Of a stretch of DNA of 64,000 nucleotides, positions 16,353-61,464 are shown in pieces. The position numbers and the translations under genes are program-made. The notes below the pieces were generated by a model that was given only the letters and a program-made list of their open reading frames with translations, was not told where the DNA came from and searched no databases. The stretch lies in NCBI GenBank assembly GCA_022071945.1, contig JAJVIN010000017.1:31251-95250 (forward strand). Direction: 5' to 3'. The stretch is from Thermoanaerobaculia bacterium (GTDB taxonomy: Bacteria; Acidobacteriota; Thermoanaerobaculia; UBA5066). Numbering within the stretch: position 1 is the first letter of the stretch; each line of letters opens with the position of its first letter.

Positions 16353-17165
16353 TCAGGGCTTCGGCGAGAAGAGCTCCCTGTCGAAGGCATCGGAGAGATA
16401 CCGGGCCGCCTCCCCGCCGGCATCGAGGTCTTCACAGACGCCCGCCATCTCCGAGCAGGCCTCGGCGAGCGGTCTCCCCGATGCGAGCGACTCGTAGAAG
16501 ACCCTGGCCGCCTCGTCGATCTCGAAAAACGCGGGCTCCTCGTCCTCGCCCCTGAAGATCACGAGGCTGTGGGGCCTTCGGACGGGACGGGCGGGCGGAG
16601 AGGACTCGAGAAAGAACGCCTCCACCTCGAATTCCAGGGACAGAAACCGCACCGAGGGCCGAAAGCAGAACGTCAACTCGGGCCATTCAGCGGGCGGAAC
16701 GGGCGCCAGCATGGATCTGAGAAGCGCCGGGGCGTCCAGGGCCTGAAAACAGTCGAGCCACTCCCACTCGAGCCGCGCGAGATCCGGGAGGAACGGGAGG
16801 GAGCTCGTAAGCGGCGACGACTCAAGATGGCGCGGGAGCGGCCTCCCGAGCCATCTCAGGGAAGGTTCGGACGGGGGGTGGGCCACGAGGAAATCGGTGA
16901 CGAGGTTGTGAAAGGCCGTCTCTCCAAGGACTCCCCTGGTCCGCGGAAAGTCCTCGGCCAGAACATCCCTCAACCGGAAGAAGTACATGTTCGCGTAGAT
17001 GTCGACCCGGGCGAGGGCCCCGAGCCGCTCGTCCCCCCGAAAGTGCGCCGAGAAGAGGTCCCCGGCGGGCATTCCCGCGGCAGAGAGCCCGGCCAGGCCC
17101 CTTGCCACTCCCTCCGGAGCTTCGAGAAGGGAGAGAAAGAAGCTCTGGAGCTCTTCGAGGTTCAC
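16353..17165 (-). CDS. DUF2063-family protein (BufC/HvfC/MbnC-like partner of MNIO enzymes)
   Basis: About 270 aa, starting at a GTG that overlaps the upstream gene stop (GTGA). N-terminus VNLEELQSFFLSLLEAP. Conserved YANMYFFRL and DLARLEWEWLD blocks typical of DUF2063. Confidence 0.8.
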   Translation of the reverse strand: MNLEELQSFFLSLLEAPEGVARGLAGLSAAGMPAGDLFSAHFRGDERLGALARVDIYANMYFFRLRDVLAEDFPRTRGVLGETAFHNLVTDFLVAHPPSEPSLRWLGRPLPRHLESSPLTSSLPFLPDLARLEWEWLDCFQALDAPALLRSMLAPVPPAEWPELTFCFRPSVRFLSLEFEVEAFFLESSPPARPVRRPHSLVIFRGEDEEPAFFEIDEAARVFYESLASGRPLAEACSEMAGVCEDLDAGGEAARYLSDAFDRELFSPKP

Positions 17166-18136
17166 GAGGGGTCTCCCGGTCCCCGCCGGAGCTCCTCGTC
17201 CATCAGCCGGGCCGCTTTCTGCCGCTCCGCCGAAAGGACACTCCACTCGGGAATCTTGTCGTCCCACTCCACGAGGCTCGAGACGGCGCCGAATCGCCGG
17301 ACGGCCCGCCTGTAAAGCTCCCAGACTCGATCCGGGACAGGGTGGTCGTGCGTGTCGATCAGGAGAGGTCCCATCTCGGACGGGCCCGCGAGATGAAACT
17401 GCCAGACGGAGCCGGGCGGGATTCCCTGGAGGTAGGACTCCCGCTCCCACCCGTGGTTGTGGCACGACACGTCCAGGTTGTTCAGGTCGAGAAGGATGCC
17501 GCACCCCGTGCGAGCCGCGAGCTCCGCGAGGAATTCCCACTCTGAAAGCGTCGAATGGAGAAAGGTGACGTAGCTCGAGGCGTTCTCCAGGGCGATCGCC
17601 CGTCCGAGAAAGTCCTGGACCTGAAGGACGCGCCGCTCCACGTGGGCGAGCGACTCCTCCGTGTAGGGCAGAGGCAGGAGATCGTGCGAGTTGTGGCCCC
17701 GCGCCGAGGTGAAGCAGAGATGATCGGAGATCCACGGCGGTTCGAGCTCAGACGCCAGCCCGCGGAGCGCCTCGAGATAGTCGCCCCGGATGGGATCGCA
17801 CCCGCCGATCGAGAGAGAGACCCCGTGCAGGACGACGGGGAACCGCTCGCGGATCGAAAAGAGAATCCGGCGCGCGCGTCCGCCGGCCCCGAGGAAGTTC
17901 TCGGTGATGACCTCGAACCAGTCGCACTCGACGCTTCCCGATAGAACATCGGGGTAGTGGCACCGTCGAAGTCCGGCACCGTGGCCCAGGAAGGGCGGTC
18001 TCTGGCCCGGGGCCGGCGAAAAAACACCCCCTCCCCGCCGAGGCGTGGAGGGGGCGACGTTCCCACCCGGCGAGGAAATCAGCGGGATTTCTTCCCTTCG
18101 GCCGGCTTCTCGTTCTTGGCCTTCAGAGCCGTGCAT
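17162..18136 (-). CDS. DUF692 / MNIO (multinuclear non-haem iron-dependent oxidative enzyme; MbnB/BufB/HvfB-like TIM-barrel)
   Basis: DWFEVITENFLG, PVVLHGVSLSIGG, PPWISDHLCFTS, LLPLPYTEESLAHV, ALENASSYV, ILLDLNNLDVSCHNHG, QFHLAGP, DTHDHPVPDRVWELY. This is a near-textbook DUF692 motif set. The only in-frame start codon is the ATG at 18136. It overlaps the last 58 nt of the precursor gene in another frame. Confidence 0.9.
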   Translation of the reverse strand: MHGSEGQEREAGRREEIPLISSPGGNVAPSTPRRGGGVFSPAPGQRPPFLGHGAGLRRCHYPDVLSGSVECDWFEVITENFLGAGGRARRILFSIRERFPVVLHGVSLSIGGCDPIRGDYLEALRGLASELEPPWISDHLCFTSARGHNSHDLLPLPYTEESLAHVERRVLQVQDFLGRAIALENASSYVTFLHSTLSEWEFLAELAARTGCGILLDLNNLDVSCHNHGWERESYLQGIPPGSVWQFHLAGPSEMGPLLIDTHDHPVPDRVWELYRRAVRRFGAVSSLVEWDDKIPEWSVLSAERQKAARLMDEELRRGPGDPS

Positions 18137-18381
18137 TCCTTCTCATCGGCGGCCATGACCCAACCCTTGCCCTTGCACGAGTTCTGGCCGTGGCAGGAGT
18201 GTCCCCCCGGCACGCCGCACTCGCTCGTCGCCTTGCAGGCGTTCCCGCCGACACACTTGTACTTCTTTTCGGCCTTCGGCTTGTCGGCCGCCTTCTTGGT
18301 CTCCGCAAGGGCTCCGTTGGCGACGAGCACAGTCGCCGCCGCCATCGCGATCGCCGTCCCGAGGGCTTTCTTCTGGTTCAT
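18079..18381 (-). CDS. Small secreted Cys-rich precursor peptide (bufferin-like, DUF2282/BUF_6Cys-like)
   Basis: 100 aa. Sec signal MNQKKALGTAIAMAAATVLVANGALA with an AxA cleavage site. Lys-rich mature part with 6 Cys: KC VGGNAC KATSEC GVPGGHSC HGQNSC KGKGW...KEC. It sits immediately upstream of the DUF692-DUF2063 pair. RBS GGAAGGAGA lies 8 nt before the ATG. Confidence 0.75.
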   Translation of the reverse strand: MNQKKALGTAIAMAAATVLVANGALAETKKAADKPKAEKKYKCVGGNACKATSECGVPGGHSCHGQNSCKGKGWVMAADEKECTALKAKNEKPAEGKKSR

Positions 18382-48000: not shown

Positions 48001-50024
48001 TCCCGCTCGCCGACTCCATCACGACCTGGAGGGTCGGGATGAGCGCGGTCTCGGGAAAGGGAGAACTCGGCAGTCGAGACGTGGGCCTGAGAGTCTTCCA
48101 GGACTTCTTCGTCGACGTCGACTTCCCCGCCACTCTGACCCAGCACGACTCCGTGAGCGTCCCTCTGGCCGTCTACAACTACCTCTCCGCCGCTCAGACC
48201 GTGGAGCTCGAGGTGCAGCCGGGAGACTGGTTCGAGTTGAAGGGGGATCGGGTCCGGAGGCTGAGCGTGGGACCGGGCCAGGTCACGAGCGTGTCTCTCG
48301 ACATCCGGGCCCTGAAGCCAGGCCGGCACGGCTTGACGGTGAAGGCCCGGGGCTCCTCGCAGGGAGATGCGGTCGAGCGGACGGTCACCGTCGCTCCCGA
48401 TGGCCGCCCCGTGGTCGAGACCTGGAGCGGCCGCCTTTCAGGGAAGGCCGGCCAGACGTTTACGATCCCCGAGACGGCCATCGACGGGGCGAACGATCTC
48501 TTCGTGAAGATCTACCCGGGATCCTTCAGCCAGGTCGTGGAAGGGCTCGATTCGATCCTCCGCATGCCGTCCGGCTGCTTCGAGCAGACCTCCTCGACGA
48601 CCTACCCGAACGTCCTCGTCCTCGACTACCTCAGGCGCACGAAGCAGGCCAGACCGAAGGTCGAGATGAAGGCCGCCGAGTACATCAACCTCGGCTACCA
48701 GCGCCTTCTCTCGTACGAGGTTCAAGGAGGGGGATTCGAGTGGTTCGGGAAAGCCCCCGCGCACATCGTTCTGACCGCCTACGGGCTTCTCGAGTTCCAT
48801 GACATGTCCAAGGTCCACGAAGTGGATCCCGCCGTCATCGAGAGGACGCGAAAGTGGCTCTATGGTCAGCAGAAGGCAGATGGAACGTGGGAGCCGGCCG
48901 CCGGGGGGATCGCCGAGGGGGCCATCAACGCCTTTCAGGGGGCCACGCTCCGCACGACGGCGTACGTCGCGTGGGCCCTGGCGGAGACGGGGGACAAGGA
49001 TCCTCGGCTCGGCCGTGCTCTCGATCACCTCTCGCGCCCCTCGACGTGGCAGGCCGCCGGGGACGACGCCTACGCCCTCGCCCTGACCGGCAACGCCCTC
49101 GCCTCTGCTGGCCGGAATTCCGAGGCGGCTCCCGTTCTCGAGAAGTTGATGAAGCTCTCGGTTGCCGAAGGAGAGACCCTCCACTGGCAACCGAAGTCCT
49201 CCGGGGTCACCGAGTCTCGTGGGAGAGCCTTCGAGATCGAGACGACGTCGATCGCGGCTCAGGCCCTGATGAAGTCCCAGTACGACGTGGCCGCCGCGCA
49301 CAAGGCGCTCGCCTGGCTCGTTTCGAAGAAGGACTCCTTCGGCACGTGGAGCTCGACCCAGGCGACCATTCAGGCGATGAGGGCCCTGCTCGGAGGGTCC
49401 GAGCCGGGTGGTGGGAAAGGGAGCGCCAAGGTTGCCGTCGCGGCAAATGGTCGCTCCGTCGAGTCGCTCGAGATCACACCCGAGACGAGTGATGTCTTTC
49501 GCCTCGTCAGCCTGAGGAATGAAGTGCGGCCGGGTCAGAACGAGGTCGCCATCGAGCTGACGGGCGAGGGGAACCTCGCCTACCAGATCGTGGCGACGCA
49601 CTACGTGCCGTGGGGCGCCAGGAGTGAGGCGAAAGAAGAGCCCGCTATGTCGATCGAGCTCACCTACGACACCAGGCAGGTCAGAAGAGATGCGATCCTG
49701 AAGGTTGGGGCCCTCGTCAGGTACAACCGGCCGGGCGCGGCCAGGATGGTGGTCGTCGACCTCGGCATCCCTCCGGGCTTCGATGTCGATCCGAAAACCT
49801 TCGAGGACATGAAAGCGACCGGCCGAATCGAGCGCTTCTCCTTGACCTCCCGTCAGGTGATCCTCTACATCGAGGAGCTCGAAAACGAAAAGGCGCTCGC
49901 GTTCTCGTACACGCTTCGGGCCCGGTACCCGGTGAGGGCAAAGACGCCGGTCTCGGCCGCCTACCCCTACTACGAACCCGAGGCCCGGAGCGAGGCCAAA
50001 CCCACGGAGCTCGTGATCGAGTAG
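45066..50024 (+). CDS. Alpha-2-macroglobulin family protein (MG domains, thioester motif CFEQ) with an internal polytopic membrane insertion
   Basis: 1652 aa. N-terminal signal anchor. Repeated MG/bMG beta-sandwich regions. GCFEQTSSTTYPNV is a thioester-like CxEQ. Residues around 685-930 form 6-8 strongly hydrophobic helices in the same uninterrupted frame. Confidence 0.8.
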   Translation: MSEEASMSYAAVEPEVPWLGSPRFRRVLSTVILAALLLFLVGSVRVALKKPSGSQVFLYGQTALSPGKPASFRAFVLDSRDRRPLSGAAVSARLVSASGKSRPLAQVKTGEDGTVQISGEIPPDLPEGSYRLAVEADSAAGTSEVARDVSVKRSFRTMVSTDKPIYQPGQTIHIRTLSLHSSDLAPVEKRPVTITVQDPKGNKVFKALKTTSAYGIASADFVLADQVNTGDYAIEAVLGDTVSRRSVEVKVYTLPKYRIELSTQRGYFQPGETAAVTLRATYTFGKPVREAEIVITAQEFIEKFRPFAEVRGETDAEGRFRAEIPLPRTFAGQGVRKGDAPLKIEAKVTDKAGHTQERSLDLTVSEEPIRVEAFPESGVLVPRVENIVYIVTAYPDGRPAETTLTVGKDSRSVKTSAYGIAKVTLIPDGGDLSVPIRATDSHGASVSVTRTLKPGPADGFILRTSRPVYRAGETAHLSILSAAESGRVFVDAVKGGQTVLTDTVDIKGHHGELALDISPDLAGTIEVHAYRLLPNGEFVRDSRVIQVEPASDLSIGVELDRETYRPGEKALLKFLVERRKGEPVQAALSLAGVDEAVFALSEMRPGLEEVFFLLQEEILKPRWELHAALPVAPGSVLAEGGEPRPDREEAKKVLFAAAGGCSAPQVTVSKGYEEKVRQTRDEKRAYARHVLAGLALLPTLLFAISTLLLGFYAVVRLIHRGQPADLSAEHHAELRSTSGWVIWTWMLTPYLVLATAAGSAALLGRVSYRWEKGAGVLAALVHLALFVVLLRAAKRWKSSPAATATPLLRKLLWTVPTASICLGLGFVALLLGLQGYPRVIPEELGAIALGTLLTGTLLMAGFLAIARQCALRPASAGRWFWLLLSRPAALALPALLMALVAFAGARRSSPMLAGKIADDGAMRLEMAPPAAAEAKKQDVIGAPAGTLVEPTRVRRFFPETLFFLPEVITDAEGKAQVEIPLADSITTWRVGMSAVSGKGELGSRDVGLRVFQDFFVDVDFPATLTQHDSVSVPLAVYNYLSAAQTVELEVQPGDWFELKGDRVRRLSVGPGQVTSVSLDIRALKPGRHGLTVKARGSSQGDAVERTVTVAPDGRPVVETWSGRLSGKAGQTFTIPETAIDGANDLFVKIYPGSFSQVVEGLDSILRMPSGCFEQTSSTTYPNVLVLDYLRRTKQARPKVEMKAAEYINLGYQRLLSYEVQGGGFEWFGKAPAHIVLTAYGLLEFHDMSKVHEVDPAVIERTRKWLYGQQKADGTWEPAAGGIAEGAINAFQGATLRTTAYVAWALAETGDKDPRLGRALDHLSRPSTWQAAGDDAYALALTGNALASAGRNSEAAPVLEKLMKLSVAEGETLHWQPKSSGVTESRGRAFEIETTSIAAQALMKSQYDVAAAHKALAWLVSKKDSFGTWSSTQATIQAMRALLGGSEPGGGKGSAKVAVAANGRSVESLEITPETSDVFRLVSLRNEVRPGQNEVAIELTGEGNLAYQIVATHYVPWGARSEAKEEPAMSIELTYDTRQVRRDAILKVGALVRYNRPGAARMVVVDLGIPPGFDVDPKTFEDMKATGRIERFSLTSRQVILYIEELENEKALAFSYTLRARYPVRAKTPVSAAYPYYEPEARSEAKPTELVIE

Positions 50025-50061: not shown

Positions 50062-53000
50062 TCACGGGGAACCGGACTCGGCTGCCTTCTCTCTGTGGCA
50101 GCTCGCGAGGTGTTCCCGGATCTCCTCGAGGGCTTGACGGGCCTCCGCGAAGTCGAGGCGAGAAATCTGGTTCTCGAGCTCTCTCACGATGTCCGCCGGA
50201 CAGAGCGAGTGCAGAGTGGGCCGGACCATCTTGAAGAGCGTCAGAGCCTCGAGGTTCTGCTCGCCGAGGCGAACGTCGAGATGGGCGAGGAGATCGCCGA
50301 GAGCGCCGGGATCGAGAGTGTGCGGGAGCTCCCCGTCTCCTGCCACAAGGCCGTCCGATTCGACCCAGCACCCCGCCAGGGCTCTCTCGAGAACCTCGAC
50401 CGCCTCTTCCCTGATGCCCCCCTCGGCCGCGGCGGATTCGATGTCTCTCGCGGCATCGGCAATGGCCTTTGCGGAAAGAGTCGCCGCGGATCCCTTGAGA
50501 GTGTGGGAGATGTGCTTGATCTCCTCGAAATCCCGCCTCTTCTCGGCCTCTCGAATCCGGCGCGGGTCGTCGCGATGCTGGAAAACGAAGTCGGACACGA
50601 CCTCGACGAGGAGGGTCCGGTTTCCGGAGAAGCGCCTCAGCGCCGTCGCCTCGTCTATCCCGAAAAGCCGCGCCTGCGCCTCGCCGGCGACTGGGTTTGG
50701 CATCCTTGGGCCAGGCGCGGCAGAGGCGAGCGGAGCGTGCAGGAGCTCCGCGAGCACCTCGGTCAGGCTCTCGGGTTCGAGGGGTTTGGCGACGTGGGCG
50801 GACATTCCAGCGGCGAGGAGCCGGCGGGCTTCCTCGGGATCCGAGTGCGCCGTCATCGCCACGACGGGGAGGTCGGGGTACTTCTCGCGAATGTGGCGCA
50901 AGGTGGCGAGCCCTCCCATTCGGGGCATCTCGATGTCGAGGAGGACGATCTCAGGTGGACCTTCCTTCTGCATGAGCTCGAGGGCTTCCTCTCCGTCAGC
51001 TGCCTCCAGGACCTCGTAGGAAGCTCCGGCAAGGACTTGCCGCGCCATCGTCCGGTTCACCGGGTCGTCGTCGGCCACGAGGACCCGAGACGGCCTCGGC
51101 GCGCTCTCCCTTGGAATGGAAAGTGAAGGACGTCTCAGGACTCCGGAGGCCTTCTCGCGCTCGAACCGCAGACCCAGGCGTCCCTCGATCAGGCCGAAGA
51201 TCGCTTCTTCCCGGTAGGGCTTGAAGAGGACGTCGTCAGCCCCGGCCGTGCGAAGGGCTCCCGATTCGGACTCGAAGACGCTGGCGGTCTGCGCCACGAT
51301 CACCGTTCGCGTACGGCCGGTTCGTGCCTCTTCCTGGCGAATCCGCTCCGTCGCCTCCCGTCCGTCCATCACGGGCATCCTCACGTCCATGAACACGAGG
51401 TGGGGAGCCCACTCGCGCCAGAGGGTGAGGGCTTCCTGCCCGTTGGCCGCTGTCTTGACATCCAGCCCGACGGTCGTCAGAAGGGTCGAGAGGAGGGAGC
51501 GGTTCTCGAAGGTATCGTCCACCACGGCGATGCGCGGAGAGGTCTGCCCGGCCGCCAGCCTGGTGATCCGGGCGGGTTCGGTCCTCGCCGGCCTTTGGTC
51601 CGAGCGCGGGAGAGCCACCTCGAAACGGAACGTGGTGCCCTCTCCCTTCTTGCTCGACACGGCAATCGACCCGTCCATCAGCTCCACGATCCGCTTGGTG
51701 ATCGCAAGGCCGAGCCCGGTTCCCTCCCGAACCGAGCGGCCGGATTCGGTCTGCACGAACGGCGTGAAGAGCTTGCCGATCTCTTCTTCCGCGATCCCGA
51801 TCCCCGTGTCGGAGACGGCGAAGGAAGCCCGTCCCTCCCTCCAGGCCGCCACGAGCGAGACCGTCCCGGCCGTATCCCTGGCCAGGGAGGCACCGGCAGT
51901 CCTCCTGGCAGACCGGTCTTCCAGCGCGGCCGCCGTGAACTTCACGGCATTGCCCAGGAGGTTGATCAGGACTTGCCGGAGCTTTCCTGGATCTCCGAGA
52001 ACCACAGGGGGGAGCTCGCTCGAAAGCTCGACCGAGAACCTCAGATCCGCCTCCTCGCAACGGGCCGTGAACATCCGCTCGACGGTCTGGATGAGCTCCT
52101 TCAGGTCGAAGGGCTCCGCGTCGAGCGTCATCTTTCCCGCCTCGATCTTCGAGATCGAAAGGACCTGGTTGATCAGCGAGAGCAGGTGCTCGCCGCTTCG
52201 CAGGATGATCGAGAGATGGTCCCTGTCCGCCGGGGTCAGGGTCGAGCTTCTCTTCATGAGACGCGCGAACCCGAGAACCGCATTCAAGGGGGTGCGCAGC
52301 TCGTGGCTCATGTTCGCGAGGAAGACGCTCTTGGCATCGCTCGCCTCCAGGGCGCGCTGTTCCGAATCCCTCAACTCACGGGTCCGTTCCCGAACGAGCG
52401 CATGGAGCACCGACTGGCGTTGCCGCATCAGGTGAAGCCGGATCCTGTAGAGCGGCCACGTCAGGCTCACGAGGAGGAGGACCGCCGCGATCCGGAAGGG
52501 AAGGCGCTGGTAGAGCGCGGGTTCGATGGTGACGGGCAGGGCCAGGGCAGACGTGCCAAACACCCCCTCACGGTTGGAGCCCTGGGCTTCGAGCGTGTAG
52601 GTGCCGGGGGGCAACGAAGTGTAGGTCGTGGTGCGGTGGGAGGCATCGGCCTGGCGCCATTCGCGGTCGAAACCCGAAAGCCGGTAGCGGTAGCGGATCC
52701 GCGAAGGCGCGGAGAAGTCGAGGGCGGCGAACTCGAAGGCGACGGACTCGTGGCCCGGTGAAAGCCGGAGCCGGGAGAGCCCGTGAGGCACCCAGGGCCG
52801 TCCATCCACCAACAGGGAGGTCAGGACGATGGGAGGAGAAAAGCTCCAGTCCAGAAGCCCCCGCGGATCGATGAGGAGAAGCCCGTCGGGGCCCCCGAAA
52901 ACCAGCTGCCCGGAGCGGGTTTCGATGGCCGCGCCTTGCCAGATCGAGCGTCCCGTCCCTTCATCTGGCCCGAAGTGGCGAATCGCGAAAGTTGTGGGAT

Positions 53001-54966
53001 CGAACCTGAGAGTGTCCTCGACCCAGATCTTCCCCGCTCGATCCTCCAGCAGGTTGTCGCACCGTTCGTTGGCGACACCGAGCCGCGCCGAGAGATCGAT
53101 GAAGGCCGCCGCCTTCCCGTCGAATCCAGAAAGCTCGACGATCCCCGAGCTCAGCCCGGCAAAGAGCCTTCCCGATGCGGTCGAGAGGAGATCGATCGGA
53201 CTTCCCGGCGGGAGCGTCCCCGAGGTGTTCTCCTTGGTGCTCAGACGGATGAAGCGTGTTGCTCCCGGAGGCAGGACGGCCAGGCCAGTCGGAGATGCGA
53301 CCCAGAGGGCGTCCCCGTGCCAGGCGATGTCGGTGATCCCGCCCATGATTCTCTTTCCGTCCGTGAACGCCGCCGCCTCGGCCGCTCCCTTCTCGAAGTC
53401 GAAAAACCCGAGACCCGCCGTCGATCCGACCCACAGGCCGCGGCCCTCGCGATCCGGGAGCAGCGTGCTGATACGTCCCGTCGTCTTGCCGAAGGCCTGG
53501 GCCGTGAACCACTCGATTCGTCCCGTGCGGCGGTCGAGCCGATTGAGGGTTCCGGAGGTCCCCAGCCAGATCGCCCCGTCCGCCGTTTCCGTCATGGCGC
53601 CGACTCGGCCCTGGTCCAGCGACCGGCCGTCCTTCGGCCCTGGCCTGTACCCCGCCACTCTCCGTGCGCTATCGAACACGTCGGCCCCGTTGGAATGCGT
53701 TCCGACCCAGAGAAAGCCATCCGAGGATTCGAAGACCGACTCCACCTCTTCCGCCGACAAGCCGTCCGGCCGCAGGGGCGAGTGACGGAGGAGCCGGATC
53801 CCGGCCTCCGCCGGGCTGTAACGGACGAGGCCGCTTCCGATCGTCCCGATCCAGACGAGACCGCTCTCATCCACGAGCAGGCTGGAGATCCGGTTGCTCG
53901 ATACAGACTCCGGCACGGAGGCGTCGTGCCGATAGACCGCGCGGAGCTCGCCGCTTCTGGAATCGCGGACTTCGACCCCGTTCGCCGGGGTGCCGAGCCA
54001 GATCGTCTCGTCGTCCGTCTGGGCGAATGCATAGGCCCGAGCCTCCGGTTCGAGAAACCGTGCCCGGCCCGAGGCGGGATCGACCCGGGCAACACCTCCT
54101 CCGAAGATGCCCACCCAGATCGCGCCATCCCGCGCCTCGTGCAGGCGATACACCGGCCGTCCGGAGAGAGACTCCCCTCCTCCCGCCTTCTCGTCCGCCA
54201 CGGCCTCCACGCCGCCGCTTTGGCGGCGGACGGCGAGACCCGCGGCGCTGCCAATGAAGAGATCGCCGCGGCGGGAGAGGAGCAAAGCACCCAGCCGCGA
54301 CCGGTCCGGATCGAGAGAACCCTTCGGACGCGGGTCGACCCGGGTCACGGCGAGGCCCTTCGGCTCGACGAGATCGAGGCCGCCGGCACCGGAAACCCAC
54401 ATCTTCCCGTCCGGACGCTCGGCGATATCCCGGATGCTGTCCGACGCCAGGCCCTTGGGCGAGGCTGACAGGTTCTGAAACGACTCCGTCGCCGGGTCGA
54501 AGATCGACAGGCCCGAGTCGTCCGTCCCGATCCAGACCTTGCCATCCCTGGCTCCCCGGATCACCCGAATCCGGTTGCCCGAAAGCGACCTGGGATCGCG
54601 GGCATCGCGCCGGAAGACGCGAAACGTGTATCCGTCGTAGCGGACCACCCCGTCATGGGTGCCGATCCACAGGAATCCCGTTCGGTCCTGCGCCAGGCAC
54701 GTGACGTCCCGCTCGGGAATGGAACGCGAGTCTCCGACACGATGGAAGATGGGCTCTCCGAGCTGGTACTTCAGCTCGGGGCCTTCACGAGCCTGGGCCG
54801 GCGCGACGAAGAGCGCGGCGAAGAGCGCCGCGAGGAGGATCCCCTGGCCGACCGCGAGCCGCGCCGCGCCCTTTCCGGGGCGAACCGAGCCTTCCTCGTA
54901 GCGGAAGACCGCTCCCCGACACGCATCCAGGGCGCGCCTTGGCGACTCGGGCTTTGGGGGAACCAC
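50062..54966 (-). CDS. Hybrid sensor histidine kinase/response regulator: periplasmic regulator-propeller repeats, Y_Y_Y, TM, HisKA, HATPase_c, two receiver domains and a C-terminal HPt domain
   Basis: 1634 aa. H-box MSHELRTPLNAVLGF. HATPase DTGIGI. Two CheY-like blocks (RIAVVDD..., RVLVADDD...). HPt HTLKGSAATL. Confidence 0.9.
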   Translation of the reverse strand: MVPPKPESPRRALDACRGAVFRYEEGSVRPGKGAARLAVGQGILLAALFAALFVAPAQAREGPELKYQLGEPIFHRVGDSRSIPERDVTCLAQDRTGFLWIGTHDGVVRYDGYTFRVFRRDARDPRSLSGNRIRVIRGARDGKVWIGTDDSGLSIFDPATESFQNLSASPKGLASDSIRDIAERPDGKMWVSGAGGLDLVEPKGLAVTRVDPRPKGSLDPDRSRLGALLLSRRGDLFIGSAAGLAVRRQSGGVEAVADEKAGGGESLSGRPVYRLHEARDGAIWVGIFGGGVARVDPASGRARFLEPEARAYAFAQTDDETIWLGTPANGVEVRDSRSGELRAVYRHDASVPESVSSNRISSLLVDESGLVWIGTIGSGLVRYSPAEAGIRLLRHSPLRPDGLSAEEVESVFESSDGFLWVGTHSNGADVFDSARRVAGYRPGPKDGRSLDQGRVGAMTETADGAIWLGTSGTLNRLDRRTGRIEWFTAQAFGKTTGRISTLLPDREGRGLWVGSTAGLGFFDFEKGAAEAAAFTDGKRIMGGITDIAWHGDALWVASPTGLAVLPPGATRFIRLSTKENTSGTLPPGSPIDLLSTASGRLFAGLSSGIVELSGFDGKAAAFIDLSARLGVANERCDNLLEDRAGKIWVEDTLRFDPTTFAIRHFGPDEGTGRSIWQGAAIETRSGQLVFGGPDGLLLIDPRGLLDWSFSPPIVLTSLLVDGRPWVPHGLSRLRLSPGHESVAFEFAALDFSAPSRIRYRYRLSGFDREWRQADASHRTTTYTSLPPGTYTLEAQGSNREGVFGTSALALPVTIEPALYQRLPFRIAAVLLLVSLTWPLYRIRLHLMRQRQSVLHALVRERTRELRDSEQRALEASDAKSVFLANMSHELRTPLNAVLGFARLMKRSSTLTPADRDHLSIILRSGEHLLSLINQVLSISKIEAGKMTLDAEPFDLKELIQTVERMFTARCEEADLRFSVELSSELPPVVLGDPGKLRQVLINLLGNAVKFTAAALEDRSARRTAGASLARDTAGTVSLVAAWREGRASFAVSDTGIGIAEEEIGKLFTPFVQTESGRSVREGTGLGLAITKRIVELMDGSIAVSSKKGEGTTFRFEVALPRSDQRPARTEPARITRLAAGQTSPRIAVVDDTFENRSLLSTLLTTVGLDVKTAANGQEALTLWREWAPHLVFMDVRMPVMDGREATERIRQEEARTGRTRTVIVAQTASVFESESGALRTAGADDVLFKPYREEAIFGLIEGRLGLRFEREKASGVLRRPSLSIPRESAPRPSRVLVADDDPVNRTMARQVLAGASYEVLEAADGEEALELMQKEGPPEIVLLDIEMPRMGGLATLRHIREKYPDLPVVAMTAHSDPEEARRLLAAGMSAHVAKPLEPESLTEVLAELLHAPLASAAPGPRMPNPVAGEAQARLFGIDEATALRRFSGNRTLLVEVVSDFVFQHRDDPRRIREAEKRRDFEEIKHISHTLKGSAATLSAKAIADAARDIESAAAEGGIREEAVEVLERALAGCWVESDGLVAGDGELPHTLDPGALGDLLAHLDVRLGEQNLEALTLFKMVRPTLHSLCPADIVRELENQISRLDFAEARQALEEIREHLASCHREKAAESGSP

Positions 54967-55032: not shown

Positions 55033-57937
55033 TCAGTTCACCGGACCGAGGATCTCTCTCACCTTCGTCAGGAGGGCCACCGGACTGTAGGGCTTCTGCA
55101 GGAAGGCGAGTCCGCTCCGAAGCGCCGCCTCGACCGCGGCCGCGTCGGAGGAGTACCCGGAGACCAGGAGCACGTTCTGACCGGGCCTCGCCTCCTTTAG
55201 CTTCTCGGCGAGTTCTTGACCATTGCCGCCCGGCAGCACGAGGTCTGTCAACAGGAGGTCGATCCCGTCCCCATGACGTTCCGATTGGGACACGGCCTCG
55301 CGGAAGTCCGCCGCGACGATCACCCTGTACCCGCGGGATCGGAGGAGCTCGGATGTCATGGCCCGAAGAGCGCCGTCGTCCTCCACGAGGAGGATCGTCT
55401 CGTTGCCGCCCGGTAGCTGGGCCATCGACTCGAGAGCGGACTGAGATGAGACGGCCGCCTCGACCATCGGGAAGAAAAGCCTGAAGGTCGTCCCTTTTCC
55501 CTCGACGCTCTCCAGCGTGATGCCGCCCCCGCTCTGACGGACGATTCCGTAGACCGTCGACAGGCCGAGCCCCGTCCCCTTGCCCGTCTCCTTGGTGGTG
55601 AAGAACGGCTCGAAGACCTTAGACTGGATCTCCTCCGGAATACCCTGTCCCGTATCCGCGACGGTGAGAACGACGCTGGCTCCGGCCCGGGCCAGGCCTA
55701 TGGCCGCGGCTCTCTCCTCCGGGATCTCTTCGTTTGCGGTCCGGATCGCAACCCTGCCGCCCGACGGCATGGCATCGCGGGCGTTCACCGCGAGGTTCAT
55801 CAGGACCTGCTCGAGTTGCCCGGGATCGGCCAGGATGGTGGCTGGCGAGGCCTCGGCCCTCACCTCGAGCTCGATGTCCTCGCCTATCAGGCGCGTCAGC
55901 ATCTTCCGGGTCTCGTTCACGGTCTGGTTGAGGTCCAGAATCCTGACCTCCTGAGGCTGCTTGCGGGAAAACGCCAGGAGCTGGCGGGTGAGACTGGCGG
56001 CTCTCTGGCCCGCCTTCCTGATCTCCTGAACGTTTCGCCTCACCGGATGCGCCTCGGCGAGGGAATCCTCCGCGAGCTCCGCGTACCCCAGGATGACGCT
56101 GAGGAGGTTGTTGAAGTCGTGGGCGACGCCCCCCGCGAGCCGGCCCACCGCCTCCATCTTCTGCGCGTGCAAGAGCTGGCTCTTGGAATCTCTCAGAAGC
56201 TCTTCCGAGCGCATCTTCTCGCTGATGTCCTGCTTCACGGCGATGAAGTGGCGGAGGCTCCCGTTCTCGACGACCGGGGCGATCAGCATCGACTCCCAGT
56301 ACCTCTCCCCCGACTTCTTGCGGTTGAGGAGCTCGCCTCGCCACTCCCGCCCCGCCAAGATGGTCTCCCACAGCTCGCGGTAGACCCGCGGCTCCTGGGC
56401 TCCCGAGCGGAGAATCCTCGGCGACTTTCCCAGCGTCTCGTCGCGGGTGTAGCCCGTCATCTCGCAGAAGCGCCGGTTGACGTACTCGATGGCGCCGTCC
56501 CGGCTGGTGATCATGACCCCGACCGGGCTCTGCTCGACGGCGAGCAGCAGTTTGCGGACTTCCGCCTGGGCATACTGAACCGGCCTCCTCGGCCTTCTTT
56601 CGCTCCGAGATGTCGCGCAGGATCGCCAGGATGAACTCCGAATCTCCGTCCCTGACGAGCTTTCCGCTGACCTCGAACGGTATGGCCCGGCCGGTCCTGT
56701 CCCGGTGCACGGTTTCCCAGACGAGGCTCCCCGCAAGCGAGGCCTTCTGGAGAATCGACGCCGCGGCGGGAGCCGTGCCGGGCGCGCGGAGGTCTGCCAC
56801 CGTCATCTCCCGGAGCTCCTGGCGCGTGCGGCCGTACGTGGACTCGGCCTTCTGGTTCGCGTCGAGGATCCGGCCATCGAGAGAGACGAAGAGGATGACG
56901 TCGTTTGCCTGGGAGAGAACCGCCGAGAACCTCGATTCCTCGCGGGCGAGGACGGCGGCGTGCCGGATGTGCTGGGCGCGAAGCAGGACGAGCCCAGAGA
57001 GGAAGGCGCACCCGACCACGAACCAGGATGCCCGGGCGCGGTTCCTCACTCTGTCGTCCGAGGTCTTCCAGACTTCCTGCCGGTCCACCGAGACGGCCAC
57101 CGCGAAGCCCGGGTCCTCGAGCCTGTACGCCGCGACGAGCATCTCGCGGCCTCCCGGGGCTGGCGAAAAGCCGACAAGCGAGCTCCCCGGCACCTCGTCG
57201 AAGATCGAAGCCTCCACCAGGCTGGGTCCCGCCGCGGCTCCCAATGGCCCCGGCGCACGCGGCCCTCGGGGCCGCTCCAGCCTGAGACGAGAGGCCTGAT
57301 CCCGGAACAGGACAGCACAGTCGATCGACGCGGACGTTCCCCACGCGCAGTCCAGGCGGGACAGCACCGCCTGCCAGAGATCAGCCTTGACCACCAGAAT
57401 CCCGCCGGGTCGGCCCGGCTCGCCCCCGGGTAGCGGCACCCACCAGGAAACGAAGCCGCCGCCTTCCGGACCCCGCGACACCTGCCTCGCTGCCTTCCCG
57501 GAAGAGAGCACGTCCCGAACGAGAAGTCCCGCATCCTCCAGAACATCCCGGCCTCCGGCAGACACGATGGGGACGCCATCAGCGGCGAGAAGCTGGATCG
57601 AGGTGAGTCTGTGTTCCTCACGAATGATCTCGAGGACCTTTTCCGCCTCGGGACGGCCTCCATCCCTGGTGAGAAGGGCCTCCTGCAGGACGGGTTGACC
57701 CGCGATGGCCCGCGCCTCTCCCTCGAGCCACTCGAGCCACGATTCGAGCGCGATCTGCCAGTGAACAGCCGTGGTCCGGACCAGTCCCTTCCATGTGCTC
57801 TCGGCGATCGCTCTTTCCTGGGGGATCACCAGGAACTCGATGTAGCCGGCCACCAGGGCGACAAGGAGCGGAAAGACGATCAGGGCCACGAGCACCGGTG
57901 GCGACACTCGGAATCGAGGAGACTGGCTTCGAATCAT
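55033..57937 (-). pseudogene. Multi-PAS hybrid sensor histidine kinase (TM sensor, PAS, PAS, HisKA, HATPase_c, receiver) interrupted by a single frameshift near 56590
   Basis: ORF 55619..57937 encodes a plausible TM sensor plus PAS up to ...ILRDISERKKAEEA, then degenerates into Arg/Pro-rich nonsense. ORF 55033..56736 is nonsense at its 5' end and becomes a plausible protein from ...QYAQAEVRKLLLAVEQSPVGVMITSRDG (PAS), then HDFNNLLSVILGYAE (HisKA), DTGQGI (HATPase) and a C-terminal receiver. The two meaningful halves abut at gaggaggccggttcagtatgccc, where a 1-nt indel would fuse them. Confidence 0.55.
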
Positions 57938-58148
57938 CCGGATCCTGCAAGTCTAGTCCCTCACCAGGACCGTGACGGGGAGAGTCCCAAGGAGCCGGGG
58001 GAATTCCCTGTTCGAGAACGAGACAGGCGACGCGCCGCTCCTCCTGGCGGCGGAGGAAGCGGACGCCTTCCCTTCCGCCAGGTCCCTGAAACGGGGGGAA
58101 GCCGCGAGAGAATGCCGGGCAGGCACACGGACACGTGAGGAGGACACG

Positions 58149-59861
58149 ATGAAGAGAGAGAAGGTGGTTGTGGCCGCGCTGGGGTTGCTCGCCATCACCG
58201 GCCAGGCAGCCGCTGGCGACCTGCCGGCCCGCGGCCGCGGGAGTGCCACGCGCTCCGTCGTGTGGGCCCGGGGCGGAATGGTGGCCGCGGCGCAGCCGCT
58301 CGCTGTCCAGGCAGGTCTCGACATCCTCAAGCAGGGGGGCAACGCCGTCGACGCCGCGATCGCGGCCAACGCCTGTCTTGCCGTCATGGAACCGACCGCC
58401 TGCGGGCTCGGGGGCGACATCTTCGTGCTCCTGTGGGACCCCAAGCTCGGAAAGCCCGTGGGCCTCAACGGGTCGGGGCGGGCTCCCCTCGCCCTGACAC
58501 CCGAGAAGGTCCCGCCGCAACAGAACGGAACGATCCCTCTTCACTCTCCCTATGCCTGGACGGTTCCCGGATGCGCGGGCGGGTGGTTCGACCTGCATGC
58601 GCGGTACGGGAAGCTCCCGATGAAGACGATTCTGGCGGCCGCCATCCGGTACGCGGACGAGGGCTTCCCCGTCTCGCCGGTGATCTCCTCGGACTGGGCC
58701 CGGAGCGTTCGAGTCTTCAAGGACAAGCCCGGCTTTTCCGAGGTCTTCGCTCCGGCGGGCCGGGCTCCTTCCGAGGGCGAGATCTTCCGCAACCCTGCCC
58801 TGAAGAAGACCCTCGCCCTCCTGGCCGAGAAGGGACGCGACGCCTTCTACAAGGGTCCGATCGCCGAGGCGATCGTGGAGTACTCGAAAAAGCACGGCGG
58901 GTTCTTCTCGCTTGCGGACTTCGAGCGGCACACATCGACGTGGGAGGACCCCATCACGACGAGCTACAGGGGCCTCGACGTCTGGGAGCTGCCCCCGAAC
59001 GGCCAGGGACTGGCGGCTCTCCAGATGCTCAATATCCTGGAGCGGTTCGATCTGAAGAAACTGGGGAGGAACTCCGGCGATTTCTGGCACGTCATGGTCG
59101 AGGCCAAGAAGCTCGCCTACGCTGACAGGGCCCGCTATTACGCGGACCCAGCGTTCGCCCGGACCCCCGTCGAGGCCCTCCTGTCGAAAGACTACGCGGG
59201 CAAGCGGGCGGCCCTGGTCAGCATGGAAAAGGCGGCGCCCATCGACTCGCCCGGCGACCCGGCCGCCCTCTCTCGCAAGGAAACCACCTACCTGTGCACG
59301 GCGGACCAGAGCGGCTTGATGGTCTCGCTGATCCAGAGCAACTACACGGGCTTCGGCTCGGGATACGTCGTTCCCGAGTTAGGGTTTGGCATCCAGAACC
59401 GGGGCTCTCAGTTCGCGCTCGCCGAAGGCCACCCGAACAGGCTCGCCCCGGCCAAGAGGCCCTTCCACACGATCATCCCGGCCCTGGTCACGAAGGGAGG
59501 GGTTCCCTGGATGGTCTTCGGCGTCATGGGCGGAGACATGCAGCCGCAGGGGCACGTCCAGGTGATCGTCAACCTCGTCGACTTCGGGATGAACCTGCAA
59601 GAGGCCGGGGACGCCGCCCGCTTCCACCACACCGGGTCGACCGAACCGACCGGAACCGTGATGAGAACGGGAGGCATCCTCCATCTCGAAGACGATGTTC
59701 CGGCGGCAGTCGTGGAGGAGCTGAAGAGGAGAGGACACACGATCGAGCCCACGGCCGTGGGCACGTACGGGGGGTACCAGGCGATTTACCGCGACCCTGC
59801 GACCGGGATGTTTGCCGGAGCGACGGAAAAGCGAAAGGACGGCGCCGCTTCGGGGTTCTGA
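58149..59861 (+). CDS. ggt: Gamma-glutamyltranspeptidase
   Basis: RBS GAGGAGGA lies 8 nt upstream. Signal peptide. TTYLCTADQSG contains the autocatalytic/nucleophile Thr context. GGD and MGGDMQPQGH blocks. Confidence 0.9.
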   Translation: MKREKVVVAALGLLAITGQAAAGDLPARGRGSATRSVVWARGGMVAAAQPLAVQAGLDILKQGGNAVDAAIAANACLAVMEPTACGLGGDIFVLLWDPKLGKPVGLNGSGRAPLALTPEKVPPQQNGTIPLHSPYAWTVPGCAGGWFDLHARYGKLPMKTILAAAIRYADEGFPVSPVISSDWARSVRVFKDKPGFSEVFAPAGRAPSEGEIFRNPALKKTLALLAEKGRDAFYKGPIAEAIVEYSKKHGGFFSLADFERHTSTWEDPITTSYRGLDVWELPPNGQGLAALQMLNILERFDLKKLGRNSGDFWHVMVEAKKLAYADRARYYADPAFARTPVEALLSKDYAGKRAALVSMEKAAPIDSPGDPAALSRKETTYLCTADQSGLMVSLIQSNYTGFGSGYVVPELGFGIQNRGSQFALAEGHPNRLAPAKRPFHTIIPALVTKGGVPWMVFGVMGGDMQPQGHVQVIVNLVDFGMNLQEAGDAARFHHTGSTEPTGTVMRTGGILHLEDDVPAAVVEELKRRGHTIEPTAVGTYGGYQAIYRDPATGMFAGATEKRKDGAASGF

Positions 59862-59897
59862 GTTTCGTTCGGGGCCCGCCGGGCCCCGTCACACCCC

Positions 59898-60113
59898 TCA
59901 AGAACCTCCGTAGCCGACGCTGACCTTGCCATCCTCGACGATGACCGGCACGGCGCGGCTTCCCGCGGAGTACTTCAGCATCAGCTCGAGTTCCGATGCC
60001 TCCCGCTTCACGTTGCGATAGTCGACGTCATAACCCTTCTGCGCGAAGACCTCACGGGCCTCCATCGTGTAGGGTCAGGTGTCTTTTCCGAAGATCAGGA
60101 CCTTTCTTGGCAT
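59898..60113 (-). CDS. Glutaredoxin-like small protein with an in-frame TGA at the position of the first active-site Cys. Candidate selenoprotein or disrupted gene.
   Basis: Hand translation: MPRKVLIFGKDT-TGA-PYTMEAREVFAQKGYDVDYRNVKREASELELMLKYSAGSRAVPVIVEDGKVSVGYGGS*. It aligns with the Grx pattern (V)xIFxKxxCPYCxxAKxLLxxKG...PxIFIxGKxIGG. The TGA lies at 60075..60077. Confidence 0.45.
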
Positions 60114-60133
60114 GTTCACCGCCAAATGATATT

Positions 60134-61144
60134 TCAGGCGGTCGTTCCCCGGAATGCCGGGGCGTAGCGGGCGGCGGCCAGGATCGCCTCGACCATGCTG
60201 ACGGCGCTGGCGATCCCCTTGCCCGCGATGTCGAAGGCCGTCCCGTGATCGACCGAGGTCCGGAGAAACGGCAGCCCGTTCGTGATCGACACCGTTCGCT
60301 CGAAGTCGAGCATCTTCGCCGCGATGTGTCCCTGATCATGGTAAAGGCTGAGAACCGCGTCGAACTGCCCGCTGGCCGCCTGCCAGAAGACGGAATCCGC
60401 GGGATAGGGCCCCTTCGCCTCGACTCCCAGGGCCCGCGCATCCTCGATGGCGGGACGGAGCTCTCTCTCCTCCTCGTCTCCGAAGAGGCCGTGCTCGCCG
60501 GCGTGCGGATTGAGCGCCGCGACGGCAATCCGGGGAGAGTCGATTCCGAGACGTGAGAGGGCCTCCTGGCAGCGAAGGAGGGCGGTCTTCGTCCGCTCCC
60601 GCGTGACCTGGCGGACCGCCTCGCCGAGCGAGAGGTGCCGTGTGAGAAAGAAGATGCGGAGGCTCTTCGTTTCGAACATCGTCAGCGGGTCGGCCGTGCC
60701 CGTCAGCTCGCCGAAGATCTCGGTGTGGCCGATCTGGGAGACTCCGGCCGCCCGGAAAGCCTCCTTGTTGACCGGAGCTGTCGCCACGGCGTCGAGCTCC
60801 CCGGCCAGGGCCAGCTCGATGGCTTTGCGGATGAACTCGAACGCCGCCCGGCCTGCCTTCGCCTGGATCTTTCCCCATTCGATCTCGTCGCTCGGCAGGC
60901 CGGGAACCTCGAGGAGATCCAGGGAACCTCGCACGCAACGAGCGTCTGAAACAGCTCGGATCCTGTTGAGAGCCAGCGGCAAGCCGCAGAGGGCGATGAT
61001 CCTCTCGAGGGGCCTCGCGCTCCCGATCACGACGGGCCGTGCCACTTTGAAGATCTCCGTGTCCGAAAAAGCCTTGGCGACGATCTCCGGGCCGATCGAG
61101 GCCGGATCGCCGAGGGTCACCCCCACGCACGGGCGTCGTTCCAT
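60134..61144 (-). CDS. pdxA: 4-hydroxythreonine-4-phosphate dehydrogenase
   Basis: VGVTLGDPASIGPEIV N-terminus. HTEIFGELTG. HAGEHGLFGDEE and TSVDHGTAFDIAGKG blocks typical of PdxA. Confidence 0.9.
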   Translation of the reverse strand: MERRPCVGVTLGDPASIGPEIVAKAFSDTEIFKVARPVVIGSARPLERIIALCGLPLALNRIRAVSDARCVRGSLDLLEVPGLPSDEIEWGKIQAKAGRAAFEFIRKAIELALAGELDAVATAPVNKEAFRAAGVSQIGHTEIFGELTGTADPLTMFETKSLRIFFLTRHLSLGEAVRQVTRERTKTALLRCQEALSRLGIDSPRIAVAALNPHAGEHGLFGDEEERELRPAIEDARALGVEAKGPYPADSVFWQAASGQFDAVLSLYHDQGHIAAKMLDFERTVSITNGLPFLRTSVDHGTAFDIAGKGIASAVSMVEAILAAARYAPAFRGTTA

Positions 61145-61464
61145 TCTCCGCCTCCCCCGGGGCGAATCTTATCCGCCCTCCGACGCAAGTGAGACCCCGC
61201 CGGAAGGCCGGGAGCGGCAGGCCCACCGGGCGAAATCCTGACCCGCCCGTCCGTCCGTGAACCCGCCAGCCACGGATCAACTTCTGACCCTGCCTTCGTC
61301 AGCCGGTCCCTTCCCCCCTCGGAAACGACCCCCAAAGCCCATATAACTATCTGCACCACAACTACTTGTACCCACGATCGAAAGCGAACTCAAATGGCGG
61401 CACGGATTCTGCAGTTGAAACGTCAGACGAATTCGAACTTCACCCAATCTAAGGAGGAATCAAC

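Follow-up and report, generated by a model that had tools for sequence, protein, structure and literature searches.

A probable UXX-star selenoprotein family 1 gene with two recoded UGA codons downstream of pdxA in a Thermoanaerobaculia-like acidobacterium

A short glutaredoxin-like gene between pdxA and ggt

In the window, by which we mean the whole 64-kb stretch of DNA that was analysed, a short minus-strand gene lies directly downstream of pdxA. Two UGA codons stand in its frame ahead of the stop codon that we assign to it, and a hairpin follows each of them. The features of the locus are as follows.

59889..60113, minus strand: complete coding sequence of 74 codons and a stop (from the translation and the NF041114 score)
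60111..60113, minus strand: ATG start codon, 12 codons 5' of the first UGA and 20 nt past the pdxA stop codon
60075..60077, minus strand: predicted Sec codon 1, UGA, residue 13, at the first position of the U-P-Y-T active-site motif
60042..60067, minus strand: putative SECIS element 1 (SECIS1), inside the coding region (RNAfold, −10.0 kcal/mol)
59898..59900, minus strand: predicted Sec codon 2, UGA, residue 72, read as a stop by the GenBank gene calls
59892..59897, minus strand: final two sense codons, GGG GTG, for Gly73-Val74 (from the sequence in frame after UGA-72)
59889..59891, minus strand: true stop codon, UGA (from TGA GGG GTG TGA at 59900..59889)
59870..59888, minus strand: putative SECIS element 2 (SECIS2), in the 3' UTR, with an 8-bp G+C stem, CGGGGCCC-GGC-GGGCCCCG
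60134..61144, minus strand: pdxA, upstream of the gene across a 20-nt gap (NF002992 PdxA, 503 bits; cutoff 470)

Translation of the frame from 60113 to 59898 (minus strand) gives MPRKVLIFGKDT-stop-PYTMEAREVFAQKGYDVDYRNVKREASELELMLKYSAGSRAVPVIVEDGKVSVGYGGS-stop, where the part between the two UGAs begins with PYTM and ends with YGGS. A sequence-only reading of this DNA had described the frame as a glutaredoxin-like ORF of 71 codons, ending at 59898, with an in-frame TGA (60077..60075) at the glutaredoxin active-site position. The TGA was confirmed in the sequence at that position, and the resemblance was borne out by the Pfam Glutaredoxin model PF00462, which scored 42.3 bits (cutoff 22.9) with Cys in place of the stop. 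The end of the ORF has to be revised, as GGG GTG TGA follows in frame. The in-frame TGA GGG GTG TGA fills the three final positions of the family model, and the gene is therefore 60113..59889. With Cys substituted for Sec, the product scored 110.9 bits on NF041114 (cutoff 72), and residues 5–74 covered model positions 1–70 of 70; when the three-residue tail was omitted, the score was 101.9 bits and the match covered positions 1–67 of 70. The gene would contain two Sec codons because the apparent stop is the second of them, followed by Gly-Val-stop. The predicted product of 74 residues is MPRKVLIFGKDT-U-PYTMEAREVFAQKGYDVDYRNVKREASELELMLKYSAGSRAVPVIVEDGKVSVGYGGS-U-GV, and its C-terminus is encoded as GGS-U-G-V-stop. 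We conclude that the locus is very probably a 74-codon gene of UXX-star selenoprotein family 1 in which both UGAs are recoded to Sec.

All of the features that define UXX-star family 1 are present at the sequence level: U-P-Y-T at residues 13–16, the C-terminal U-x-x-stop, and a small single Grx-like domain. Haft and Tolstoy are said to have published the primary paper on the UXX-star families in 2025. NCBI names the Cys-form relatives "UXX-star (seleno)protein family 1". Two reviews list the family as "Distant Grx-like protein 1" (PMC9312934, PMC13188914), and the entry for NF041114 in the 2026 review gives UxxT and two Sec (PMC13188914). The window protein shares with the family a length of about 70–74 residues, the Grx-like character, the U-x-x-T motif, the C-terminal U-x-x-stop, and the two Sec, and it differs from the family in nothing architectural; in comparison with the other members, only the pdxA neighbourhood is peculiar to this Thermoanaerobaculia/Acidobacteriota protein. 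The gene is an ordinary member of a known, curated family whose UxxT motif and two Sec have already been curated and reviewed, and nothing in it is new in kind. The family itself is known and biochemically uncharacterised; the literature yielded no experimental Se incorporation for any UXX-star family 1 member.

The same Grx-like domain ending in U-x-x-stop occurs in UXX-star families 2 and 3 and in the HUGP/GUXX-star fusion, but the window protein remained far below the cutoffs of the corresponding models (NF041211, 37.9 bits with a cutoff of 100; NF047338, 44.7 with 97; NF045501, 48.6 with 325). Family 2 has a single Sec (GxGU) (PMC13188914). The classical dithiol glutaredoxins (Grx3/GRX_bact, TIGR02181) and NrdH (TIGR02194) share with the window protein the fold, the position of the C-P-Y-x motif, the V-P cis-proline, and the GG motif; the window protein differs from them in having Thr for the second Cys of the motif and, judging from the model of a relative, in lacking the C-terminal helix. 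Assignment as a classical dithiol glutaredoxin was rejected, as the motif is U-P-Y-T and not C-x-x-C and the scores are low (TIGR02181, 34.5 bits with a cutoff of 90; NF007923, 28.1 with 129). The score on the NrdH model TIGR02194, 18.4 bits, is likewise far below its equivalog cutoff of 85.75.

Conservation of the two UGA codons and their hairpins

A homologue scan that took one genome per species found 80 loci encoding relatives, and the counts given here were made over 80 sequences, namely 79 usable loci and the window. The relatives belong to Acidobacteriota, Thermodesulfobacteriota/Desulfobacterales, Latescibacterota, Binatia, Gemmatimonadota, Planctomycetota, and other taxa. In-frame translation revealed the same architecture in every locus, with the following codons at the three positions of interest.

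Site 1 (codon 13), n = 80: TGA 60, TGC 11, TGT 9 (Cys in 20)
Site 2 (C-terminal), n = 80: TGA 78, TGC 1 (Cys), TCA 1 (Ser)
Terminal stop, n = 80: TAA 32, TGA 27, TAG 21

The comparison of homologues at UGA-13, which the sequence-only reading had proposed as a check, thus returned only TGA and Cys codons. Both TGAs recur (60/80 and 78/80) with Cys as the alternative, which is more than chance would produce. The active-site motif is [U/C]-P-[Y/F/H]-T in all 80 sequences, the fourth residue being Thr throughout, and between sites 1 and 2 none of the 80 has a further Cys or Sec. In 80/80, exactly two sense codons separate site 2 from the stop; the tail is U-G-V in 43, and the final residue is Val or Ile in 79, with synonymous codon variation. 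The commonest arrangement among the homologues, as in the window, has the start 12 codons ahead of site 1. In the Gly-Lys-Asp-Thr codons before the first UGA, positions 1 and 2 of the first three codons are essentially invariant and the third position is free, and this pattern of invariant first and second and varying third positions is a signature of translation through the UGA. By this codon pattern, the 12 codons upstream of UGA-13 appear to be under purifying selection at the protein level.

The published bSECIS model has a loop of 3–9 nt, a stem of 4–16 bp, a UGA-to-loop distance of 16–37 nt, and an MFE of −7.5 kcal/mol or lower, with a G within the first two positions of the loop that is usually followed by G or U (PMC13188914, Fig. 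2 legend). The hairpin GGAGGCC-CGUGA-GGUCUUC (60063..60045), located 11 nt after the first UGA and already pointed out in the sequence-only reading, was confirmed, and RNAfold extended it to 8+2 bp: an upper stem of 8 bp (60064..60057 with 60051..60044) carries the apical loop CGUGA (60056..60052), and two extra pairs lie beneath a bulged A. The claim that its spacing and loop are those of a bacterial SECIS agrees with the published constraints, within which SECIS1 falls in its loop (CGUGA), stem (8 bp), distance from UGA-13 to the beginning of the loop (18 nt), and energy (−10.0 kcal/mol). The 21-nt core folds at −9.0 kcal/mol (z −2.8), and 3 of 200 shuffled sequences folded as well.

Since SECIS1 lies in coding sequence, the Sec-forms were compared with the Cys-forms. 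The Ala codon is GCY in 59/60 Sec-forms and in 6/20 Cys-forms (Fisher p 3.5e-10), and the Arg codon is CGU or CGG in 59/60 and 4/20, respectively (Fisher p 2.9e-12); synonymous-site constraint on the loop codons of SECIS1 was found in the Sec-forms only. Among the Arg codons of the window, CGU is rare (114/1391). The loop-closing pair covaries, being C-G in 42 and U-A in 13 sequences. The lower stem, taken across the family in the register of the window, is only moderately conserved (59.6% of the cells paired, compared with 56.4% after shuffling), and in this register only the top 2–4 pairs are conserved family-wide; the register of the lower stem differs between lineages. The MFE of the 45 nt after site 1 showed no difference between Sec-forms (−11.1 kcal/mol) and Cys-forms (−11.7 kcal/mol; p 0.78). 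In these alignments, the SECIS1 signal appears as specific synonymous sites and the loop-closing pair, not as the folding energy of the whole region.

SECIS2 is free of coding constraint. In the window it folds at −16.9 kcal/mol (z −3.2), and none of 200 shuffled sequences was as good; its GGC loop, which begins 17 nt past the second UGA, its 8-bp stem, and its energy are all within the bSECIS constraints. Across the family, the stem has at least 7 bp in 57/78 sequences, compared with about 19% of shuffled ones, the loop starts 16–21 nt after the UGA in 68/78, and the loops are mostly GGU, GGC, GGA, or GGUC. In a structure-naive MAFFT alignment, compensatory changes were found at all 7 pairs of the helix. 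Paired cells amounted to 75.3%, compared with 56.7 ± 1.6% in shuffled alignments and at most 49.6% in slid controls, and the covariation score was 0.493 versus 0.185. Rfam, which is uninformative for bacterial SECIS, matched nothing in the window at its gathering thresholds, nor anything in 59800..60200 with E relaxed to 10.

Expression of the gene would proceed as follows. Translation would begin at the ATG at 60113, UGA-13 would be decoded as Sec with the aid of the in-frame hairpin and its CGUGA loop 18 nt downstream, and UGA-72 would be decoded as Sec with the aid of the second, G+C-rich hairpin, which lies past the real stop with its GGC loop 17 nt downstream. The chain would end in Sec-Gly-Val-COOH. 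The sequence-only proposal of a candidate selenoprotein is strengthened by the Sec/Cys pairs and by the constraint on SECIS1, but it had missed the second Sec, the SECIS in the 3' UTR, and the curated family NF041114.

Some variants were observed among the relatives. The C-terminal Sec has been lost in rare members, being replaced with Cys in L025, Ser in L040, and Leu in P0009, and in all three of them site 1 is Cys, not Sec. The database translation of another relative, P0012, has Trp at both sites, which reflects a gene caller's TGA = Trp code applied to a Sec gene. Global reassignment of TGA to Trp was rejected for the window: 22 of its 32 genes end in TGA as an ordinary stop, so the code is not reassigned, and the homologues have Cys, not Trp. 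Of the 20 forms that have Cys at site 1, 9 come from Vicinamibacteria-type Acidobacteriota, where such forms are common (Vicinamibacterales/Acidobacteriota loci L012, L015, L017, L020, L024, L026, L033, L034, and L069). In these forms the SECIS1 signature GCY-CGU-GAR is gone, and the C-terminal Sec and the 3'-UTR hairpin are retained. They look like a natural experiment in which the two recoding events are independent.

Alternative readings of the UGA codons and the genomic context

The GenBank entries for this gene are exactly the 55-aa product that would start at the internal Met, named "glutaredoxin" (MCC6131585.1, MCG3192588.1, and MCK6681681.1), and a probable single-base indel exists elsewhere in the window, in the histidine-kinase gene near 56581. 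Both facts would suit the view that TGA-13 arose from TGC through an error of sequencing or assembly, or that the gene is a decaying pseudogene from which a 55-residue peptide is made starting at Met17 (60065), two possibilities that the sequence-only reading had also raised. Against an error, five contigs that were assembled independently, from separate sequencing runs (four runs and NCBI GCA_023151375.1), agree in both TGAs. Each of these five loci is 96.9–99.6% identical to the window over the full aligned length, and one strain keeps both TGAs in spite of 7 substitutions in a 300-nt region, 3 of which change amino acids. The recurrence of both TGAs in five independent contigs, together with the presence of the 55-aa ORF on 21 contigs of public assemblies, excludes a sequencing error. 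TGA at site 1 in 60/80 homologues from many phyla speaks against both an error and decay. The internal Met is excluded as a start, since only 1/80 homologues has Met17, which is unique to the lineage of the window; the purifying selection on the 12 upstream codons also argues against a pseudogene, and the 55-aa fragment would lack strand 1 and the active site and reaches only 71.4 bits on NF041114, just under the cutoff of 72. We consider error or decay to be scarcely conceivable. A reading in which UGA-13 alone encodes Sec, with the TGA at 59900..59898 as a real stop and the hairpin as a terminator shared with ggt, would account for the gene callers' ending the ORF at 59898 and for the perfectly palindromic G+C hairpin that lies in the 27-nt convergent spacer. 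It is at odds with the two sense codons and stop in 80/80 sequences, where a conserved Gly is followed by Val or Ile with synonymous variation, and with the two homologues that have Cys or Ser at site 2 and read on to G-V-stop. In addition, NF041114 includes the tail positions, so that adding the tail raises the score from 101.9 to 110.9 bits, and the loop (G-G/U) and 16–21 nt spacing of SECIS2 fit the SECIS constraints. As for a terminator, at least 4 U in the 8 nt after the hairpin were found in only 13/78 homologues, and no terminator-like site was found in 59600..61400; in the window, GAACGAAAC comes right after the SECIS2 hairpin. To judge from these sequences, the hairpin is not a canonical Rho-independent terminator. 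A single Sec is strongly disfavoured and, in our estimation, very improbable, and the reading with two Sec codons is preferred.

SECIS2 fills nearly all of the 27-nt spacer (59862–59888) between the true stop at 59889 and the convergent gene ggt, which encodes gamma-glutamyltransferase (57972..59861, plus strand). Its G+C palindrome would fold in the RNA from either strand, and read-through from one convergent gene into the other might be limited by it; the hairpin could also serve as a bidirectional transcription stop between them.

On the upstream side, pdxA is a probable co-transcription partner of the selenoprotein gene in the lineage of the window only. In GenBank, the PdxA encoded there is attributed to MAGs of Acidobacteriota/Thermoanaerobaculia. 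The adjacency of pdxA and ggt is kept only in near-identical contigs or strains, and adjacency to pdxA was seen in 0/79 distant loci. Clustering of the neighbours of the 79 loci found no conserved gene partner and only lineage-specific syntenies. As the pdxA/ggt adjacency is confined to near-identical strains, the neighbouring genes give no clue to the substrate. None of the 32 genes called in the 64-kb window is selA, selB, or selD, and the window contains no tRNA-Sec (selC) and no tRNA at all; a scan of the window for coding-like sequence on both sides of TGA codons gave no convincing second selenoprotein candidate. The gene itself suggests that this Thermoanaerobaculia-like acidobacterium is probably a selenium user.

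Several other genes in the window were noted. The histidine-kinase gene at 55033..57937 (minus strand) contains one extra G at 56580–56581, the sequence being GCCGAGGAGGCCGGTTCAG compared with GCCGAGGAGGCC-GTTCAG in two near-identical contigs. In both of these the gene product is one PAS histidine kinase, of 967 and 957 aa, and in the window the gene is split into the overlapping ORFs 55619..57937 and 55033..56736. The split reflects either a true frameshift or an indel introduced in assembly. A gene of the alpha-2-macroglobulin family (1652 aa, 45066–50024, plus strand), whose Pfam families were taken from the identical gene in related contigs, adjoins a hybrid histidine kinase gene (1634 aa, 50062–54966, minus strand) with Reg_prop/Y_Y_Y sensor repeats, and neither is evidently linked to the selenoprotein. 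At 17162–18381 (minus strand) lies a bufferin-type copper RiPP pair, comprising a BufA2-family precursor (18079..18381; NF050166, 58.6 bits, slightly short of the cutoff of 60) and an MNIO maturase, BufB (17162..18136; NF050167, 342.9 bits, cutoff 310).

Fold and predicted chemistry of the two selenocysteines

The AlphaFold model of P0009, a full-length relative 61% identical to the window protein, has a mean pLDDT of 86.6 and the topology b-a-b-a-b-b, with no C-terminal helix and with a disordered, low-confidence tail at residues 71–74. Its best matches in the PDB are glutaredoxins and NrdH, including cGrx1 and cGrx2 of C. oremlandii, with TM values of 0.75–0.79. In glutaredoxin structures, the last strand exits beside the active site. 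On this fold, Sec13 of the U-P-Y-T motif, in which Thr replaces the usual resolving Cys, would be the active-site residue at the N-terminal end of helix 1, and Sec72 would sit on a flexible Gly-rich C-terminal tail in place of the last helix of the classical glutaredoxins.

The nearest solved protein by sequence is cGrx1 (E 1.3e-5). The cGrx1 protein of Clostridium (Alkaliphilus) oremlandii (PDB 7c10/7c12) is a selenoprotein glutaredoxin according to Kim et al. 2011, as that work is cited in PMC13188914. Like the window protein, it is small and bacterial and has Sec at the first position of the glutaredoxin active site, and it is among the top fold matches, with a TM of 0.76–0.77. It has its own features in a U-x-x-C motif that includes the resolving Cys, a single Sec, and a C-terminal helix without a Sec tail, whereas the motif of the window protein is U-x-x-T and its second Sec lies three residues from the C-terminus.

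Mammalian thioredoxin reductase has a C-terminal Gly-Cys-Sec-Gly tail, which shuttles electrons from a buried redox centre. In common with the window protein, it carries Sec on a flexible Gly-rich tail near its end and has a SECIS in the 3' UTR; it differs in its pyridine nucleotide-disulfide oxidoreductase fold, in its eukaryotic SECIS with SBP2, and in using a Cys-Sec dyad, in contrast to the two distant Sec of the window protein. We took this tail as the model for the mechanism of Sec13 and Sec72.

Because Sec13 and Sec72 are the sole Cys/Sec residues of the family, we infer that they form a redox pair, and we give this slightly less than an even chance. The two would be joined reversibly by a selenenyl-selenide bond, replaced by Se-S in those homologues (25%) whose site 1 is Cys. 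The Sec on the tail would be mobile and face the substrate, much as the C-terminal tail of thioredoxin reductase does. An intramolecular Sec13-Sec72 diselenide is the chemical reading that we prefer, tentatively and with somewhat less than even weight; it would make the protein a natural bacterial diselenide oxidoreductase whose resolving residue has been moved from CxxC to a mobile tail. Since site 2 is Sec in 78/80 and site 1 tolerates Cys in 20/80, the tail residue and not the classical active-site residue would be the critical nucleophile, and this bias suggests that the tail residue may be the one that needs selenium chemistry. The two selenols might, instead of being a catalytic pair, be ligands that bind or traffic a soft metal or metalloid (Hg, As, Cu, or Cd). 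Metal binding has been proposed for the Sec residues of UXX-star proteins (PMC13188914), and two chalcogens, one of them on a flexible tail, suit chelation; a copper-related bufferin RiPP pair is present in the window, though 40 kb away. Such a role is nevertheless unlikely in our view, given that metal-resistance or transport genes are not consistently adjacent in the 79 loci, where the neighbours depend on the lineage (HPr/PtsI, Ndk, or an ABC ATPase), and that the glutaredoxin fold and the conserved V-P (cis-Pro) and GG motifs are typical of thiol-disulfide exchange.

The deposited 55-residue "glutaredoxin" corresponds to 59898–60065 (minus strand), from the internal Met to the second Sec codon. 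The GenBank entry accordingly lacks both Sec, strand 1, the active site, and the C-terminus, and should be a protein of 74 residues with two Sec. If the two Sec are a diselenide couple, the family would offer a compact natural system for Se-Se redox chemistry and, at the level of the message, a case of tandem UGA recoding on one short bacterial mRNA, with one SECIS in the coding sequence and the other in the 3' UTR.
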